Position numbers and translations under genes: made by a program. The notes under the pieces were generated by a model. It made no database searches and was not told where the DNA came from. It worked only from the letters and a program-made list of their open reading frames with translations. Shown here one piece after another: positions 1 through 14,376 of a DNA stretch of 16,159 nucleotides; the first letter of the stretch is position 1; every line of letters begins with the position of its first letter. The stretch lies in the IMG/VR virus record IMGVR_UViG_2690316131_000017; one strand, written 5' to 3'. The stretch is from a virus. Lineage: Duplodnaviria > Heunggongvirae > Uroviricota > Caudoviricetes.

Positions 1-1461
1 ATGAAAAAATTACTGCGTCTTTTTTTCCCGCTCTCACTGCGGGTACGTTTTCTGTTGGCAACGGCTGCGGTAGTACTGGTGCTTTCGCTTGCCTACGGAA
101 TGGTCGCGCTGATCGGTTATAGCGTCAGTTTCGATAAAACTACGTTTCGGCTGTTACGTGGCGAGAGCAATCTGTTCTATACCCTTGCGAAGTGGGAAAA
201 CAATAAGTTGCATGTCGAGTTACCCGAAAATATCGACAAGCAAAGCCCCACCATGACGCTAATTTATGATGAGAACGGGCAGCTTTTATGGGCGCAACGT
301 GACGTGCCCTGGCTGATGAAGATGATCCAGCCTGACTGGCTGAAATCGAATGGTTTTCATGAAATTGAAGCGGATGTTAACGATACCAGCCTCTTGCTGA
401 GTGGAGATCATTCGATACAGCAACAGTTGCAGGAAGTGCGGGAAGATGATGACGACGCGGAGATGACCCACTCGGTGGCAGTAAACGTCTACCCGGCAAC
501 ATCGCGGATGCCAAAATTAACCATTGTGGTGGTGGATACCATTCCGGTGGAGCTAAAAAGTTCCTATATGGTCTGGAGCTGGTTTATCTATGTGCTCTCA
601 GCCAATCTGCTGTTAGTGATCCCGCTGCTGTGGGTCGCCGCCTGGTGGAGTTTACGCCCCATCGAAGCCCTGGCAAAAGAAGTCCGCGAACTGGAAGAAC
701 ATAACCGCGAATTGCTCAATCCAGCCACAACGCGAGAACTGACCAGTCTGGTACGAAACCTGAACCGATTGTTAAAAAGTGAACGCGAACGTTACGACAA
801 ATACCGTACGACGCTCACCGACCTGACCCATAGTCTGAAAACGCCACTGGCGGTGCTGCAAAGTACGCTGCGTTCTCTGCGTAGTGAAAAGATGAGCGTC
901 AGTGATGCTGAGCCGGTAATGCTGGAGCAAATCAGCCGCATTTCACAGCAAATTGGCTACTACCTGCATCGTGCCAGTATGCGCGGCGGGACATTGCTCA
1001 GCCGCGAGCTGCATCCGGTCGCCCCACTGCTGGACAATCTCACCTCAGCGCTGAACAAAGTGTATCAACGCAAAGGGGTCAATATCTCTCTCGATATTTC
1101 GCCAGAGATCAGCTTTGTCGGTGAGCAGAACGATTTTGTCGAGGTGATGGGCAACGTGCTGGATAATGCCTGTAAATATTGCCTCGAGTTTGTCGAAATT
1201 TCTGCAAGGCAAACCGACGAGCATCTCTATATTGTGGTCGAGGATGATGGCCCCGGTATTCCATTAAGCAAGCGAGAGGTCATTTTCGACCGTGGTCAAC
1301 GGGTTGATACTTTACGCCCTGGGCAAGGTGTAGGGCTGGCGGTAGCCCGCGAAATCACCGAGCAATATGAGGGTAAAATCGTCGCCGGAGAGAGCATGCT
1401 GGGCGGTGCGCGGATGGAGGTGATTTTTGGTCGCCAGCATTCTGCGCCGAAAGATGAATAA
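1..1461 (+). CDS. phoQ: sensor histidine kinase PhoQ (complete, 486 aa)
   Basis: ATG at 1-3, TAA at 1459-1461. Translation shows two TM segments flanking a periplasmic domain with an acidic patch (EDDDDAEM), an H-box ([11 protein letters not shown]) and HATPase boxes (DNACKY, DDGPGI, GQGVGL). Length and sequence match my recollection of E. coli PhoQ. Confidence 0.96.
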
Positions 1462-5784: not shown

Positions 5785-6992
5785 TCCGTTTTTTCTCCCT
5801 CGCTGATTTTTACTTCCTGTTTCCATGCCTGGCTGAACTCATCACCACCATCACGCGGTGACAGTCCTTCACGTTCGCGGGCTTCGTTCGGGCACATAAC
5901 GCCGGATTTGATGCCGCGCTCATAGGTGGCAAAGCGTTCGCCAGGTGTGGCCCGTAACAGGTCCGCGCTGTCAAACTCCACCTGATACCGGATACCAGGT
6001 ACAGGCGAGGCCACCAGCAGGGCGTTTTTTATCTGCTGCTCAAAGTTCGCCAGCCACGGGCGCATCGTCATGGTGAGAAATGCGCGGCTTGCCTCGCTGA
6101 AATTGCTGTAGGTGCTGTTGCTGTATTCCTGCAAAAAAATCGGCGAGACGTTGAACATTCGGGCGATGTCTTCAATGGTAAAGCGACGGGAGGCCAGCCA
6201 TTCAGCATCCTGATTACTCATGCCCAGCTGCTGATAGCTCATACCCCCTTCAAGGATGGGCGTTTTTCCGGCGTTTCTGGCCCCTTTGTAGCGTTCCAGT
6301 GCGGCTAATGCCTGTTTGCCCTTCACGCCGTCCAGCCATTCGCCTGACGTGATAACCCCTGCCGCCATCATGCCATCACGCATCACGCTCGCGCCGTGGC
6401 GTTGTTGGGCCAGCCCAAGCCCCAGCGATTCGCGGCAGATGGTTACAGGTGAGCGCCCCATAAAGCCGTCATCCGTGGAGTAACGAAGGTGAAGTACTTC
6501 CCACGGTAAATAGTTGTGGGTGTTTCCGGTGTAGGCGTCAGTGATGCAATAGCGCCAGTTGTGTTCTCCTGTCTGCTCCACGTTCACCGACTGCGGCGGG
6601 TAAGGATGTAAAGCCGCCGGAAAACCATCACGCCCCCACTGAATAACCGCATAAGCATTACCGTTTAACAGGCAGTGGCGGATCATCATTCGCTTAAACT
6701 AGTAGGGGGTTTGCCATGCGTTCGGGCGCTCGTTGAAGATGTGATCGACCGGATGAGAATCAAGCCACTCGCGGGCCTCCTTCCCCTTCTCATTGCGTAC
6801 CAGGTACAGGTAGCATGGCATAGTAGCCACCGCCTCAGAGATGACCGTAACGGCGTTCATGACGGCAGGCAGTGATTCCGCTGTCCCCGATGATACGTAC
6901 TCACCCGCCCCCGTGTTCGATGTGCCGGCCAGCGCCATAAATTCATCAAGCGTCATGCTGCGCTGCTCTTTTTTTCTTCTGAAAGGCCACAT
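5781..6992 (-). pseudogene. HK97-family portal protein interrupted by one in-frame TAG (codon 98, plus coordinates 6699-6701)
   Basis: Track ORFs 6699-6992 (97 aa, portal N-terminus AVMNAVTVISEAVATMPCYLY) and 5781-6689 (302 aa, portal core with FTIEDIARMFNVSP) are in the same frame, separated only by TAG and three sense codons. Combined length ~403 codons is portal-sized. Confidence 0.8.
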
Positions 6993-8978: not shown

Positions 8979-9008
8979 GAACAACGTGGAACAACCACGA
9001 ACAAATAA
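8979..9008 (+). promoter_or_regulatory. three 10-bp-phased AACAA boxes overlapping the -35 of the packaging-operon promoter
   Basis: GAACAACGTG GAACAACCAC GAACAAATAA. On the minus strand the proximal box (TTGTTC) sits 16 bp upstream of TATTTT (8957-8962), about 190 bp upstream of the capsid ATG. Confidence 0.5.
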
Positions 9009-9018
9009 TTTACAAAAA

Positions 9019-9046
9019 ATAACAAAAAGCCGGATTGCTCCGGCTG
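9019..9046 (-). terminator. intrinsic terminator (stem AGCCGGA/TCCGGCT, loop TTGC, U-tract on minus strand)
   Basis: Perfect 7-bp stem followed on the minus-strand RNA by UUUUUGUUAUUUUUU; 19 bp downstream of the stop of gene 9065-9289. Confidence 0.75.
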
Positions 9047-9064
9047 TATGTGCTGTATGGGTGC

Positions 9065-9289
9065 TCAGTCTCTGATCCCTTTCAGAAATTCTATCAATGC
9101 ATCTGTCTGTTCAGGATTTACTGCCAGCATTTCACCGGATAGCGCGCAACGAACAAAACCATGATGATCCTTTTCAATCAGCGCCCCCGTTTCCAGAAAT
9201 GCGCGGTAATCAGTGATATTCATCGTCTCCATGTTGTCAGCATGGTATTTATCACGCTGTTTAAGTATCTCATCAAATTTCATCGGCAT
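9065..9289 (-). CDS. hypothetical protein (74 aa) in a terminator-flanked cassette
   Basis: ATG at 9289 with a GAGGAA Shine-Dalgarno 8 nt upstream (the track ORF runs further up to 9367). No family recognised. Confidence 0.5.
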   Translation of the reverse strand: MPMKFDEILKQRDKYHADNMETMNITDYRAFLETGALIEKDHHGFVRCALSGEMLAVNPEQTDALIEFLKGIRD

Positions 9290-9373
9290 TGCGTTTTCCT
9301 CTGTTGTGTCTGTTTGTTTCAGATAGTAACTATGCCGGACCGTGACGAAAAGCCAGTAGTGCTCCATACCGTT

Positions 9374-9399
9374 TCAAATGACGCAAAAAAAGCCGGATT
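9374..9399 (-). terminator. intrinsic terminator, near-identical copy of the one at 9019-9046
   Basis: Same 23-bp sequence aaaaagccggattgctccggctg; on the minus strand the stem-loop is followed by a U7 tract. Lies 32 bp downstream of ORF 9431-9592. Confidence 0.75.
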
Positions 9400-9430
9400 G
9401 CTCCGGCTGCGTGGTGTGGTTCTGATATTC

Positions 9431-9592
9431 CTACTCTGCTAATTTGCTCAGCCCCATGTCTGCGTAAGTGCGATTTACTGCATTTCTCAGGTCTGCGTAG
9501 TTCTCCGTTGGCGGCTCCGGTGTGCCCTTGCTGCTCTGTTTTACCTGCGGGTCGTCCACCAGCCGCCCGTAAGCGGCTATCTGTGCCGTCAT
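9431..9592 (-). CDS. hypothetical small protein (53 aa)
   Basis: Not in the ORF track (under 60 aa). ATG at 9590-9592 overlaps the stop of the upstream gene (ATGA); hand translation gives MTAQIAAYGRLVDDPQVKQSSKGTPEPPTENYADLRNAVNRTYADMGLSKLAE; TAG at 9431-9433. Confidence 0.35.
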   Translation of the reverse strand: MTAQIAAYGRLVDDPQVKQSSKGTPEPPTENYADLRNAVNRTYADMGLSKLAE

Positions 9593-9903
9593 AATTCCAC
9601 CTCTCCGGTTTTAACGTTGATGGTTGTTACCTGTTCCGCTTCGGCAATCTCCCGTTCTGTCAGCGTGGCAAAGTTTGCCGCCGCCGTGGTCATGAATGCG
9701 CTTATCAGGTCGGGATGTTCCTTCGCGTATCCTTCCCGCGTGTGGCGGTCTATCGTTCTGATTGCCACCTTTAAGGTGTGCTCAGTCATGTCTAACGCTT
9801 TATATTTTGGCTCTGTTCTGTCTCTGCGAATTTTGGTCATTTGTCGCCCCTGATTCATGTTTTCGGCTGGCATGTTTGTTAAGTGATTTTGATGTATGCG
9901 CAT
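9589..9903 (-). CDS. hypothetical protein (104 aa; alternative start at 9840 gives 83 aa)
   Basis: ATG at 9903 is preceded by a strong Shine-Dalgarno (GAGGGGGGTGA); an internal ATG at 9840 also has an AGGGG Shine-Dalgarno. First gene downstream of the ori. No family recognised. Confidence 0.5.
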   Translation of the reverse strand: MRIHQNHLTNMPAENMNQGRQMTKIRRDRTEPKYKALDMTEHTLKVAIRTIDRHTREGYAKEHPDLISAFMTTAAANFATLTEREIAEAEQVTTINVKTGEVEL

Positions 9904-9953
9904 TTATTTTCACCCCCCTCGTTTAAAAAGTTTTGAGTTGTGCCTCCCCCCCC

Positions 9954-10172
9954 TCTACCCATCTACCCGAATGCTCATCATGTCAGTAATGGCGCGGCTT
10001 TCAGCGGGTAGATAGCTTTTTTGGCTCCTCTACCTGCCGTCTACCCTGCTACCTGAAATTGATAAAATCAGGTAGAAGAGGTAGAGAGGTTTTATTAGCC
10101 TTCTACCTAGCCCTCCACCCACTTATCATGTTGAATAATATGCGTTTATCTCATTCAGGTAGATGGGGTAGA
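9954..10172. repeat. replication-origin iteron field: at least 11 copies of TCTACC(C/T) / GGTAGA in both orientations with AT-rich spacers
   Basis: Copies near 9954, 9962, 10006 (inverted), 10029, 10040, 10049, 10071 and 10080 (inverted), 10102, 10158 and 10166 (inverted). Immediately downstream of the primase stop at 10189; flanked by AT-rich tracts and a C8 homopolymer at 9946-9953. Confidence 0.65.
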
Positions 10173-10188
10173 GGGCTTTTACAAAAAA

Positions 10189-11943
10189 TTATAAAAACGC
10201 GTCACAATCATCCGTTGTAATTGCGTTGGTCTGCGTTACTCCCTTAACTTTCCGCGTAATATATTCATGTCCGTAAACTTTTGCCGCTGGCTTCATGGCC
10301 TTGCTGAACTCAGCCACGTTTAGCGGTTTGCTCCTGCCTGCGTATGCCATAAACGCCAGATAGACGCGGTAAAGGCTGTTCCTGGTCGTGTACTTCACTG
10401 AATCGCCACCGCCACCCATCATCAGGCCGCGCGCTTCCTCCAGAAAATTCAGGAACTGGCAAAACTCAATAACCGGATCCGTCTGTTGCTTTATTGCCAG
10501 TGCTTCATCACCGTCGCGCTGTTCCAGGAGTAAAGCCCGTGCCTTTTCAGGGTCGGCAAAGTTCGCCAGTAATCGGCGGATAATCACAGGGATTTCAGCC
10601 GCAATCTTTTCCGGTAGCTCCCTGTCTTTTTCGGCCTCACTGACGATATTGTCGAAACGGAAAATCACGCGACGACGTGCCACACCTCCGGCCCGTTCGG
10701 TGAATATCATCGGGTTGTTGTTGGTCGCCAGCACCACCGCCCTGATTACCGCCGTGAAACGCTTTTCATATTTCGGGTTAATTTCCACGGGGTCGCCGCC
10801 CGTGATTTTCTTGATGCCCGTTCCTTCGCCTGTATATTTCGGCTGGTCTGCCAGGACGATAAGACGACTCCCGACAACCTGCGCACGTCCACCAGCATCA
10901 TCAAGCGATGTCATCTCAGCGCTTACCGTGTTCTGTTTCCCTGCCAGAAGGCTGGCTATGTGTGTGAATGTACTTTTACCGCTCCCGCCGTCTCCGGTGG
11001 CCTCAATAAACATCTGCCAGTCGTACCGGTTCGCCATAATCATGTACAGCGCGGCACATATACGCATCATCTTGCGCGGGTCTTTTCCGGCTGCGTGCTC
11101 AAGCCATTTATGAAAGTTTGGCGCGTTGTCGCGGATATTCTCCCCTGGTGCTGGTGGCGTGTACTCAATGCCGTTATGCGTGGTGATCCAGTTCTCCGGC
11201 GTGTGCGGGGAAAATTCCCCCGTTTTCAGGTCAAGCACACCATTGGCGAACGGCAGCAAATCGCCGGACGGTTCGCCCATTGGTTCGGCAATAACTTTTA
11301 ACGCTTCCACGGTGTTATTGATTACGCGCTTGCTGAAAGTGGCCCTGTGCTCTGAATAGATCGCCACCATTTCGCGGCTCAGTGCCATTGTGCTGACCGG
11401 ACACCATACCCCGCCGCGCCATACGTGAACGATTTCACTTTCAGGATGTACGCAAACGCCATCAAAGCGCCCGGCAAGCAGCTGCGCGCGCTCACTGTCC
11501 GCCATCTGCGAAAGTTGCGCCTTTTGCTTTACCGGAAGCTCAATGACCAGACCATCAGAAAGATTCTGGCGCTCACGGGCCAGATATTCGCGCCAGTTCT
11601 CCACCTCCTGAACGTGCATTCCCTCAGGGTAAAAATTTGCATCCTGTACACCTGCCGCCGCCAGCTTCTGACCAATCGCCTTTATCATTACAGGCTCAAG
11701 ATGTCCGGCCCTGAATATGCGTACTGATTTTCGGCCTTCCGGCACAATTTGCAGCTTATCCAGTTCGGATAACTGCTGCTCCCCAAGCCACACAGGAGGC
11801 TCATTATCTCCGGCCATACGCGCGTCATGTTCCTGCCATTGTTTTGCGTGTGACCAGGCATCACTACCCGCAAAAATAATGACTTCTGTTTCTTTGTGTT
11901 TTATGCCGCGTGACTGCTGTTTTACGTTCGGTGCCAGTTTCAT
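10189..11943 (-). CDS. P4-family primase/helicase (replication initiator)
   Basis: 584 aa with a Walker A P-loop (GDGGSGKST) in a D5/P4-type helicase region preceded by a primase-like N-terminal domain. ATG at 11943 overlaps the upstream stop (ATGA). Adjacent to the iteron ori. Confidence 0.88.
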   Translation of the reverse strand: MKLAPNVKQQSRGIKHKETEVIIFAGSDAWSHAKQWQEHDARMAGDNEPPVWLGEQQLSELDKLQIVPEGRKSVRIFRAGHLEPVMIKAIGQKLAAAGVQDANFYPEGMHVQEVENWREYLARERQNLSDGLVIELPVKQKAQLSQMADSERAQLLAGRFDGVCVHPESEIVHVWRGGVWCPVSTMALSREMVAIYSEHRATFSKRVINNTVEALKVIAEPMGEPSGDLLPFANGVLDLKTGEFSPHTPENWITTHNGIEYTPPAPGENIRDNAPNFHKWLEHAAGKDPRKMMRICAALYMIMANRYDWQMFIEATGDGGSGKSTFTHIASLLAGKQNTVSAEMTSLDDAGGRAQVVGSRLIVLADQPKYTGEGTGIKKITGGDPVEINPKYEKRFTAVIRAVVLATNNNPMIFTERAGGVARRRVIFRFDNIVSEAEKDRELPEKIAAEIPVIIRRLLANFADPEKARALLLEQRDGDEALAIKQQTDPVIEFCQFLNFLEEARGLMMGGGGDSVKYTTRNSLYRVYLAFMAYAGRSKPLNVAEFSKAMKPAAKVYGHEYITRKVKGVTQTNAITTDDCDAFL

Positions 11944-12936: not shown

Positions 12937-13159
12937 GGTGTACCCCTCCGCATTTTTTTTCGTTAGAAATAAGCGTTCTTCTTTCCTGTTCATCGCTCAG
13001 GAATACGCAGACCTCACCGCTAAGGCGTTTAAGTAAGCCGATGATTGCCCCTGATTCGCTGTCGGTCATCATGCCAGGGTAATCCTCTGCCAGTGCGCAA
13101 ATGACTTCGATTTGGTGGGCGCGTTCTGCTGCCTGTTGTAGTGTGATTTCCTGGCTCAT
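12926..13159 (-). CDS. hypothetical protein (77 aa from internal ATG; track ORF to 13225)
   Basis: ATG (MSQEIT...) overlaps the stop of the upstream gene (ATGA). Coordinates follow the ORF-track frame. Confidence 0.45.
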   Translation of the reverse strand: MSQEITLQQAAERAHQIEVICALAEDYPGMMTDSESGAIIGLLKRLSGEVCVFLSDEQERRTLISNEKKCGGVHHVQ

Positions 13160-13356
13160 AAGCCTACCCCCTGACGAATACGGGCGGCGAATACCATCAC
13201 GCAGCCAGCCGGAGATTGCTGGCATGCTTCCTGTTCGCTGGTGGCCTCAATGGTAATCACGCGCGGTTGTGCCGTGCTCAGGGCGATAAAACGCCAGATG
13301 TATTTATTCAGGTTGTGCGAGTCCCGCCCTTGCGGGTGTGTGGTATGATTTCTCAT
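13156..13356 (-). CDS. hypothetical protein (66 aa), first gene of the leftward early operon
   Basis: C-terminal 66 codons of the 387-aa track ORF. ATG at 13354-13356 with a GAGGT Shine-Dalgarno, directly downstream of the operator-bearing promoter. The rest of the long ORF is judged spurious. Confidence 0.4.
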   Translation of the reverse strand: MRNHTTHPQGRDSHNLNKYIWRFIALSTAQPRVITIEATSEQEACQQSPAGCVMVFAARIRQGVGL

Positions 13357-13453
13357 AGCTACCTCGATACTTTCGCTATCGTTGGTGGTTAGACGCCCTG
13401 CATGTGTTGCGAGCACTGCGGGGCGTTGCTTAATTTGAGTGACAAAACTCAAA

Positions 13454-13540
13454 CTGTGCGCACAGATTAAAATCATGTGTGCGCACATGTCAATACTTAA
13501 CATCTCATTTTTTTTGCTGTATTGTGTGCGCCCATAAAGT
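13454..13540. promoter_or_regulatory. divergent promoter/operator switch with TGTGCGCACA palindromes
   Basis: Perfect 12-bp palindrome CTGTGCGCACAG (13454-13465), 10-bp palindrome TGTGCGCACA (13478-13487) and a half-site TGTGCGC (about 13525-13531). Leftward promoter read on the minus strand: TTGACA (13488-13493), 16-bp spacer, TTTAAT (13466-13471). Candidate rightward promoter TTGCTG / TAAAGT. Confidence 0.55.
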
Positions 13541-13561
13541 CCATTTAAGTGAGGTGCATCA

Positions 13562-13759
13562 ATGTCTAGCGGTAACACAAACAACAAATCAGCAAAGAAA
13601 AATATTCGATTCCCGCATGAGCTTATAGATGGGATTGATGCCAGCGTTGAACAAGAAAAATTAACTAATCCTAGTGCTAATTTTTCCGCATGGGTCTTAG
13701 ATGCCTGTGGACGCAAATTAAAATATGAACAGCGCCGGAAGGCCAAAGAATCAGAATAA
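13562..13759 (+). CDS. small DNA-binding-like protein (65 aa), candidate island repressor; possibly YlcI/YnfO-like
   Basis: ATG at 13562 with a GTGAGGTG Shine-Dalgarno. The segment KKNIRFPHELIDGIDASVEQE ... NFSAWVLDACGRKL has a strand-helix-helix pattern suggestive of a ribbon-helix-helix fold. The YlcI/YnfO (DUF3950) resemblance is from memory and unverified. Confidence 0.55.
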   Translation: MSSGNTNNKSAKKNIRFPHELIDGIDASVEQEKLTNPSANFSAWVLDACGRKLKYEQRRKAKESE

Positions 13760-13816
13760 TCACTATCAGCGCCGTGGTGTGAGGAACTACGGCGCATTTC
13801 TTTACAGGAGTAGACA

Positions 13817-14002
13817 ATGAACAACGAAGAATTACGGGAAATCGCATTATCCATACTTGAAAGACAGGTAGAAAAAAAATTAAGAGAAATGGATGAAATG
13901 CCTGACCATGAACAGGAAGCAAGGCCAAAAAGATTTGCCCTTGAGGATTTTCTTAAAAATTGCCCAAGAAAGATGAGATCGTGGCGTTGTTGTCCGCCCT
14001 GA
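13817..14002 (+). CDS. hypothetical protein (61 aa)
   Basis: ATG at 13817 with a GGAG Shine-Dalgarno; co-directional with the upstream gene and followed by a strong terminator. Confidence 0.5.
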   Translation: MNNEELREIALSILERQVEKKLREMDEMPDHEQEARPKRFALEDFLKNCPRKMRSWRCCPP

Positions 14003-14079
14003 TGACAGATTTGCCAACCAGCCAAAAATGTGGCATCGTTGTCGATACATAGTGTAATCAACATGTATATCATATTTTT

Positions 14080-14106
14080 GCGACCATCATAGGTCGCATT
14101 TTTTTT
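14080..14106 (+). terminator. intrinsic terminator (GCGACC-atcata-GGTCGC followed by T8)
   Basis: Perfect 6-bp GC-rich stem followed by an 8-T run; about 80 bp downstream of the plus-strand gene pair. Confidence 0.7.
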
Positions 14107-14376
14107 GCCTGTAATCCGGCAATTGTGGCGCTTCTTCACACAGTTGATATAATTCCAATGCTCATATTTATTTTTTGTGCAGCAGGTTAATCGTTCACAA
14201 AGGCGCTCAGGTAACTGGGCGCTTTTTGTTATGCCTGAAAAACCCCAATTTTGTTGTTTTTCAGTTTCACCAGGGCGAACGAATCCCCGCCTACGTTCTG
14301 GCGTATATTCAATCTTCATGGTTATAGCTCTGTGTTCAGATGATTGATGTGTGGCGGCTGCGTGCCGCCAGCGTGA

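Follow-up and report, generated by a model that had tools for sequence, protein, structure and literature searches.

The region between positions 9904 and 10188 is very probably the vegetative iteron replication origin of a capsid-forming PICI (cf-PICI), located beside the gene of its initiator. The window, meaning the whole 16,159-nucleotide stretch that was analysed, carries a strongly enriched and clustered set of short iterons directly 3' of a gene for a P4-alpha-type/SF3 initiator. The origin reading is further supported by the near-identity to the EcCICFT073 replicon with its plasmid result, by conservation across 81 loci, by the helical phasing of the iterons and by the covariation of iteron and initiator. 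All sequence features that define SaPI and PICI origins (PMC9371898) are found here, together with the cf-PICI gene set, and the region holds no competing promoter or terminator, DnaA box, IHF consensus or Rfam family.

The window opens with phoQ (1-1461, plus strand), after which a mobile island reads on the minus strand (Table 1). Capsid-forming PICIs are defined by a published gene set, and the genes of the island are that set, with all listed genes lying between about 2100 and 16159. The element is an E. coli cf-PICI at the ycfD(roxA)-phoQ site. At least 80% of the window is found at the same place in 52 complete E. coli genomes, and the far end of the island borders on roxA (ycfD) in strain RM6927. 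The boundary is marked by the att-like sequence GGGCATATTT at 1460-1469, which overlaps the phoQ stop codon and has one mismatch to the published EcCICFT073 ycfD-phoQ att core GGACATATTT. Relatives of the 1.2-kb stretch comprising the origin and its flanks occur in 1501 of 5426 complete genomes, and the window's own origin variant in about 86. The portal gene of this copy contains a CAG-to-TAG nonsense codon at residue 98 (6699-6701, minus strand), splitting the gene into open reading frames 6992-6699 and 6689-5781; the intact homolog in E. coli RM6927 has 403 aa. Capsid building by this island copy may fail unless the stop codon is suppressed, and the island may be decaying, with no direct bearing on the origin. 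A mechanically called open reading frame of 387 aa (13156-14319, minus strand) matches known families at residues ~297-385 only, namely PHROG 'transcriptional repressor' families (297-385) and the NCBIfam Icd-like domain (340-383). This frame is probably not a real gene, because several small genes plus an icd-like pseudogene are annotated at this place in relatives.

Table 1. Features of the origin and of the surrounding island, in window coordinates.
Feature	Position	Strand	Remarks
Integrase	16159-14930	-	
Small regulatory genes including an Icd-like domain	between integrase and DUF4222 gene	-	
DUF4222 gene	12239-11940	-	
Pri-Rep initiator-helicase	10189-11943	-	584 aa; N-terminus, D5_N, SF3 ATPase (DUF5906), C-terminal origin-binding domain
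C-terminal domain of Pri-Rep, predicted iteron-binding winged helix	10216-10482	-	residues 488-576
Whole intergenic origin region	9904-10188	-	285 bp; from initiator-gene stop to conserved ATG 9903
Iteron array	9954-10172	both	12 hexamers; 10 exact and 2 one-mismatch
TCTACC iterons	9954, 9962, 10029, 10040, 10048 (GCTACC), 10102, 10114 (TCCACC)	+	
GGTAGA iterons	10007, 10071, 10080, 10158, 10167	+	
Module A AT-rich spacer	10120-10157		two facing iterons on each side; 68-76% AT; among the least stable 1.6-3% of 25-mers
Module B short AT-rich spacer GAAATTGATAAAATC	10054-10070		between two and three converging iterons
Invariant spacer element CTGAAAGCCGCGCCATTACTG (minus-strand reading)	9984-10004	-	inside module C
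C8 tract abutting the last iteron	9946-9953	-	specific to the window's origin variant
Invariant distal block AACTCAAAACTTTTTAAACGA-Gn-TGAAAATAA (minus-strand reading)	9904-9939	-	A-run/T-run element and Shine-Dalgarno-like G-run
C6 tract (G6 on the coding strand)	9913-9918	-	Shine-Dalgarno-like run for ATG 9903; hypervariable
Downstream gene phrog_1231, unknown function	9589-9903	-	two in-frame candidate starts, 9903 and 9840
PerC-like gene and one more small gene	beyond the phrog_1231 gene (9903/9840-9589)	-	
HK97-type capsid, prohead protease, portal, head closure, adaptor, HNH, TerS, TerL	after the PerC-like gene	-	

The iterons are concentrated at the origin to a degree far beyond chance. 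The heptamer TCTACCY occurs at 12 sites in the window, ten of them within 9954-10172, and none of 200 shuffled sequences reached 12 (mean 1.6, maximum 6). The two remaining sites are an isolated copy in the island at 13866 and one in phoQ at 488, and a search across the window for a second iteron cluster, as in the ori and crr of P4, returned none. The original prediction of at least 11 TCTACC(C/T) iterons in both orientations was a fair count of the array. Both one-mismatch copies, GCTACC at 10048-10053 and TCCACC at 10114-10119, lie in register, close relatives have the canonical GGTAGA at both places, and the TCCACC copy is thus a recent mutation. The first iteron starts 17 bp past the initiator stop codon (10189-10191), and no coding sequence is annotated in the equivalent region of homologous RefSeq loci. 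In the reading direction of the initiator gene, the hexamers fall into three groups of converging iterons. Module A consists of two TCTACC, an AT-rich spacer of 37 nt and two GGTAGA; module B of two TCTACC, an AT-rich spacer of 15 nt and three GGTAGA; and module C of one TCTACC, a 37-nt spacer and two GGTAGA. The iteron centres are phased with a period of 10.7 bp (R = 0.80; 5 of 5000 random placements match or exceed this value), and the phasing also holds in other origin variants. Such a period places all iterons on one side of the helix, as is expected for cooperative nucleoprotein assembly.

The array is maintained by relatives with diverged surroundings. Aligning the post-gene regions of 80 relatives (initiators 89-99% identical) with the window gave 81 sequences that fall into at least four diverged origin variants. 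Hexamer cores and positions are fixed across these loci and the spacers drift, with a mean identity of 0.90 in iteron columns versus 0.76 in spacers and other positions (reached in 3 of 5000 permutations). Despite the divergence, the length of the origin core stays within 255-260 nt throughout the alignment. Outside of the hexamers, CTGAAAGCCGCGCCATTACTG in module C is invariant or nearly so in the 81 sequences and at least four variants, and the distal block is invariant across all origin variants.

The adjoining gene encodes the protein expected to act on the iterons, and most of its length can be assigned to families by homology. Pri-Rep has matches in Pfam, PHROG and NCBIfam, is annotated as 'DNA primase family', and scores 111.4 bits against the P4 primase family TIGR01613 of NCBIfam (cut-off 108.7). 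Domain calls were made by sequence homology, with searches against the PDB based on single sequences or on a profile of 30 diverse homologs. The closing ~90 residues are homologous to the P4 alpha origin-binding domain (1KA8; single-sequence E 8.6e-6, profile E 4.5e-17) and score exactly at threshold against Pfam Pox_D5. The prediction that the C-terminal domain of the primase is the iteron binder is supported by this homology, and binding by the domain is likely. The SF3 core resembles PriRep5 of SaPI5 (7OLA; E 7.8e-16 with the single sequence over the ATPase region, 9e-29 with the profile). The weak point of the prediction is its description of the neighbouring gene as a primase: an initiator-helicase gene does adjoin the origin, but a catalytic primase domain is undetectable. 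Residues 1-150 gave no Pfam match at E up to 10, the profile of diverse homologs gave no PDB match over its first ~200 positions, and a recognizable catalytic primase domain is missing from this protein and 29 diverse homologs. A catalytic primase assignment of the 584-aa protein is unsupported. The N-terminal ~140 residues (11494-11943, minus strand) match no Pfam family or solved structure by sequence, here or in the 29 homologs. Alignments with relatives of P4-alpha size (770-830 aa) begin only at query residue 120-150.

A sister element provides experimental evidence for such a replicon. The pri-ori fragment of EcCICFT073 sustained a temperature-sensitive plasmid at the restrictive temperature, and rep and ori mutants failed to do so (Fillol-Salom et al. 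2018, PMC6092414). The EcCICFT073 Pri-Rep (NC_004431.1 1382241-1383995) is identical to the window's protein at 572 of 584 residues (98%). Both elements occupy the ycfD-phoQ att site with the origin directly 3' of the pri-rep gene, and in the 288-bp region following the EcCICFT073 gene the TCTACC/GGTAGA hexamers recur with almost unchanged positions. The invariant distal block and the conserved downstream ATG are also shared. The EcCICFT073 spacers have substantially diverged from those of the window, making this a different origin variant, and the locus has no C8 tract and a G5 run where the window has G6. EcCICFT073 is a classical PICI with capsid and decoration genes only, whereas the window is a cf-PICI adding portal, protease, connectors, HNH, TerS and TerL; cf-PICIs are stated to share their replication strategy with classical PICIs. 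That the iterons define the autonomous replicon of the satellite, as originally predicted, is supported by the near-identity of initiator and site to this tested replicon. Given the near-identical initiator, the cloning test proposed with the prediction has in effect already been done on the sister element, and the EcCICFT073 replicon can stand in for that of the window.

Two other functions of the repeats were weighed against the origin reading. The genes on either side of the array point the same way, no terminator is predicted, and the invariant block overlaps the region where translation of the next gene starts. Many plasmid initiators autoregulate through iteron-like repeats. These points would suit repeats acting mainly as an operator, through which Pri-Rep or another island regulator controls phrog_1231, the PerC-like gene and the capsid module, with the origin lying elsewhere. 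We consider this very unlikely. A promoter and terminator scan of 9400-10600 found neither, nor any promoter-like site for an operator to control, and the island lacks a second TCTACC cluster that could serve as the true origin. The tested EcCICFT073 replicon requires exactly the equivalent region (PMC6092414), and loss of the array is already seen to abolish replication of the pri-ori plasmid, from which the downstream genes are absent. The architecture of the array also matches P4 ori1 and crr. A secondary regulatory role of the array is possible.

The second alternative takes the repeats for a packaging signal (cos or pac) of the island's small terminase. Small terminases often bind arrays of short repeats, and the island has its own TerS, TerL and HNH. 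The same array with the same iteron is nevertheless present in classical PICIs without TerL (EcCICFT073, JNE151685), it tracks the initiator allele and not the packaging module, and it lies more than 5 kb from terS, which makes a packaging role extremely improbable. The replication origin is the reading that we retain.

Origins of SaPIs and PICIs are defined by iterons immediately 3' of rep, with an AT-rich region between opposed iterons (PMC9371898, PMC6092414), and those of E. coli PICIs are described as an AT-rich region between sets of iterons, located downstream of pri-rep (PMC6092414). SaPI1, SaPIbov1 and SaPI5 resemble the window in carrying 6-12 penta- or hexanucleotide iterons directly downstream of rep, and SaPI origins likewise have an AT-rich region with at least two opposed iterons per side (PMC9371898). 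The window's array follows immediately on the initiator gene, and its 12 hexamers fall within the known range of 6-12 iterons of 5-6 nt, with at least two opposed iterons on each side of an AT-rich region in module A (2+2) and module B (2+3). SaPI Rep and PriRep are self-loading hexameric helicases with a C-terminal winged helix (PMC9371898); the window's SF3 core is related to PriRep5, and its initiator is by sequence homology a helicase with such a winged helix. The SaPIs differ in their Gram-positive hosts and unrelated iteron sequences, and the similarity to PriRep5 is distant. Published cartoons show two iteron sets around one AT-rich region, whereas the window has three converging groups.

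The iteron sequence is specific to the initiator allele, with five initiator types and four iteron sequences found at the same position. In EcCI042, the same slot between DUF4222 and phrog_1231-type genes holds iterons of either orientation that follow directly on the stop codon of rep. EcCI042 differs in having an unrelated RepA-family helicase (466 aa), the iteron AAGTGAG(G/A), an intergenic region of 200 bp and no AAAACTTTTTAAACGAGGGGG block. The EcCI042 origin (E. coli 042, NC_017626.1 1837724-1837923) is a clean example of a replication-module swap among E. coli PICIs. A contig scan for distant loci found three, two of them useful as comparators. An initiator homolog from Serratia (53% identical) is paired with the iteron ACTGTTCAC and one from Morganella (52% identical) with TGTTCAT. 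The P4 alpha iteron, TGTTCACC, is seen in P4 and the Serratia homolog only; together the Serratia, Morganella and P4 iterons are of a TGTTCAC(C/T) type. Since the iteron changes with the initiator at the same slot, the hexamers are likely the binding sites of the initiator, which argues against sites for a host factor, a terminase or a regulator of the neighbouring genes.

The layout of the window's origin resembles the two cis elements of satellite phage P4 brought together; the P4 elements and iteron were taken from the GenBank annotation. That annotation puts crr immediately downstream of alpha, with ori1 at a distance of about 4.5 kb. In the direction of alpha, ori1 consists of a pair of iterons with 10-bp spacing, a 35-nt AT-rich spacer, a single inverted iteron, 14 nt and three iterons. 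Each crr unit contains one or more iterons, a 35-nt spacer with CTGAAA, two inverted iterons and then TCAAAAAAAACTTTTTT, with CTGAAA in the equivalent spacer of both units. Modules A and B of the window mirror ori1, and module C with the AAAACTTTTT element (9921-9934), which is common to the window's origin and P4 crr, mirrors one crr unit. Module C runs from CTGAAAGCCGCGCCATTACTG in its spacer through two inverted iterons to AACTCAAAACTTTTT. Counterparts of the distal block stand just after the last inverted iteron pair in P4 crr (TCAAAAAAAACTTTTTT), Morganella (TAAAACTTTTT) and Serratia (TAAAAGTTTT), and the Serratia locus keeps the order of the window, ending in TAAAAGTTTT followed by a G6 run. 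The distal block accompanies initiators of the P4 family and is missing in EcCI042; it is therefore more aptly assigned to the replication module than to the downstream gene.

P4 and the window thus share short iterons in both orientations, direct pairs 9-10 bp apart, a spacer of 35-37 nt, an inverted pair and an A-run/T-run element. Both have an initiator of the P4-primase family with a homologous, alpha-type origin-binding domain and a cis element directly 3' of its gene. P4 differs in its iteron, TGTTCACC instead of TCTACC(C/T), and in its bipartite arrangement with separate ori1 and crr, whereas the elements of the window are contiguous in a single cluster. P4 alpha (777 aa) has a long N-terminal region, in place of which the 584-aa protein has about 140 unrelated residues, and the two origin-binding domains are only 32% identical. 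We infer from this layout, compared across a handful of sequences, that the PICI origin might be a contiguous version of the bipartite ori1/crr of P4.

The AT-rich stretches proposed as unwinding sites are real yet moderate. Three stretches (10050-10079, 10120-10159 and 10170-10199) are 72-80% AT and belong to the least stable 1-3% of the window's 25-mers without being its extreme, and the stretch at 10170-10199 spans the initiator stop codon. The module A spacer is a candidate melting site; it is AT-rich in all origin variants and occupies the position of the 35-nt AT-rich spacer in P4 ori1. The module B spacer is 72% AT and among the least stable 1.2-1.7% of 25-mers, and that of module C is not AT-rich. 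No DnaA box (allowing up to two mismatches), IHF consensus or GATC was found in 9841-10188. Folded as single-stranded DNA, the minus strand of 9905-10190 reaches -48.7 kcal/mol, far better than its shuffles (z = -6.35). The fold is a nested dyad spanning the entire origin, in which the first pair of iterons together with GAATG is base-paired to the last pair together with CATTC. An RNA element was discarded as a candidate, as an Rfam scan of 9000-11000 gave chance-level matches only. The sequence GGGTAGATGGGTAGAGGGGGGGG (9946-9968, minus strand) has the four runs of a G-quadruplex motif when read on the coding strand. As a conserved feature this motif was rejected, being present solely in the window's origin variant, and it is probably incidental.

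The distal end of the origin merges with the start of the next gene. The minus-strand sequence at the C6 tract is GAGGGGGGTGAAAATAA-ATG, whose ATG occupies 9903-9901, and every origin variant has an in-frame ATG after an invariant ...AAACGA-Gn-T(A/G)AAAATAAA block. For ATG 9903, the 25 nt upstream are predicted to pair with the 3' end of 16S rRNA at -14.8 kcal/mol with a 6-nt spacer, beyond the first percentile of the background (-11.6); for ATG 9840 the value is only -5.7. The calculation, together with the conservation of ATG 9903, agrees with the suggestion that the C6 tract is the Shine-Dalgarno sequence (GGGGGG) of the downstream gene. PGAP places the start of the window's allele at the 9840 equivalent in all ten RefSeq genomes examined, and at the first ATG in alleles without the internal ATG. 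Two starts are possible, with the G-run as a credible ribosome-binding site for ATG 9903. The window's allele contains a 36-nt stretch including AGGGGCGACAA-ATG (about 9838-9876, minus strand) with its own AGGGG Shine-Dalgarno sequence, and the other aligned alleles are without it. The EcCI042 gene starts at the ATG corresponding to 9840. This stretch downstream of ATG 9903 resembles a junction formed by recombination of the replication module with a complete EcCI042-like gene start.

The homopolymer tracts, C6 at 9913-9918 and C8 at 9946-9953, are present exactly as first described, and both vary in length. Among the 80 relatives, the 9913-9918 run has 5 (most), 6, 7, 8 or 10 residues, and within one sublineage lengths of 6, 6, 7 (six times), 8 (three times) and 10 are found. 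Nine complete RefSeq genomes with 0-3 substitutions relative to the window in the 150 nt around the tracts were also compared. Eight of these have runs of 5, 5, 5, 6, 7, 7, 7 and 8 at 9913-9918; in the ninth, a T>G change extends a 6-G run to an 8-G run. The 9946-9953 run has 8 residues in four of the nine and 7 in five. Across the window-like variant this second tract has 7 or 8 residues (once TGGGGGG), and other origin variants have CAAGGGG or GGAGGTG in its place. The expectation of a slipped-strand hotspot at C8 was correct insofar as both tracts vary between near-identical strains, but the C6 tract (5-10) outvaries C8 (7-8). Part of the length variation follows sublineages, which argues against pure sequencing error; tract lengths from single genomes may be sequencing errors in individual cases.

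We regard the tracts as slippage-prone non-coding runs, with neutral slippage as the default reading. A phase-variable switch would require that tract length sets the expression of the downstream operon or the firing of the origin, creating heritable on and off subpopulations. Lengths of 5-10 and 7-8 that differ between otherwise near-identical strains would fit a switch, as would the greater variability of the sublineage with longer tracts, which slippage predicts, and the location of the tract between an invariant element and a start codon. Yet the predicted anti-Shine-Dalgarno pairing and the spacing to the ATG are identical for G5 to G10, the non-coding tracts cause no frameshift, and promoter hexamers flanking the tract were not found in the 9400-10600 scan. 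A G-run inside a promoter spacer was dropped as a candidate on the same scan. The C8 tract is also missing altogether from other origin variants, and homopolymer sequencing errors may explain some of the lengths. A switch is thus unlikely. Equally doubtful is a reading in which the 9913-9918 G-run, and less so that at 9946-9953, would be a slippage-driven rheostat between the distal origin element and the post-origin operon. If the rheostat were true, tract length would tune origin firing or the expression of the PerC/capsid operon and produce heritable heterogeneity in satellite mobilisation. A separate and more modest novelty would be that PICI origins of this family are a contiguous fusion of the P4 ori1 and crr layouts, with all twelve iterons on one helical face. 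Neutral slippage remains the reading that we favour for both tracts, and as polymorphisms the two origin-side homopolymers are reliable for strain typing and likely sources of assembly errors.

The most plausible course of replication combines the origin anatomy with the homologies of the initiator. Once the island is induced and excised, the C-terminal winged helix of Pri-Rep would bind the twelve TCTACC hexamers, arranged on one face of the helix in three converging groups. Bound Pri-Rep would then distort and melt an AT-rich spacer, and its SF3 helicase rings might load themselves at the melted spacer without host DnaA, DnaB or DnaC, after which the excised circle would replicate. The G-run near the next gene would serve as a strong ribosome-binding site for ATG 9903, with changes in its length predicted to be neutral for ribosome binding.

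The origin belongs to a class that has already been described and experimentally validated, and little about it is new. The details added here are the helical phasing on one face, the conserved geometry, with the distal A-run/T-run element, that the origin shares with P4 ori1 and crr, the tracking of initiator type by iteron sequence at a fixed slot, and the hypervariability of two homopolymers. The importance is mostly one of annotation, as the origin of a widespread family of E. coli satellites is now placed precisely. Capsid-forming and classical PICIs share one replication module, and the distal element and spacer geometry shared with P4 crr and ori1 offer a handle on which parts of the origin the initiator contacts.
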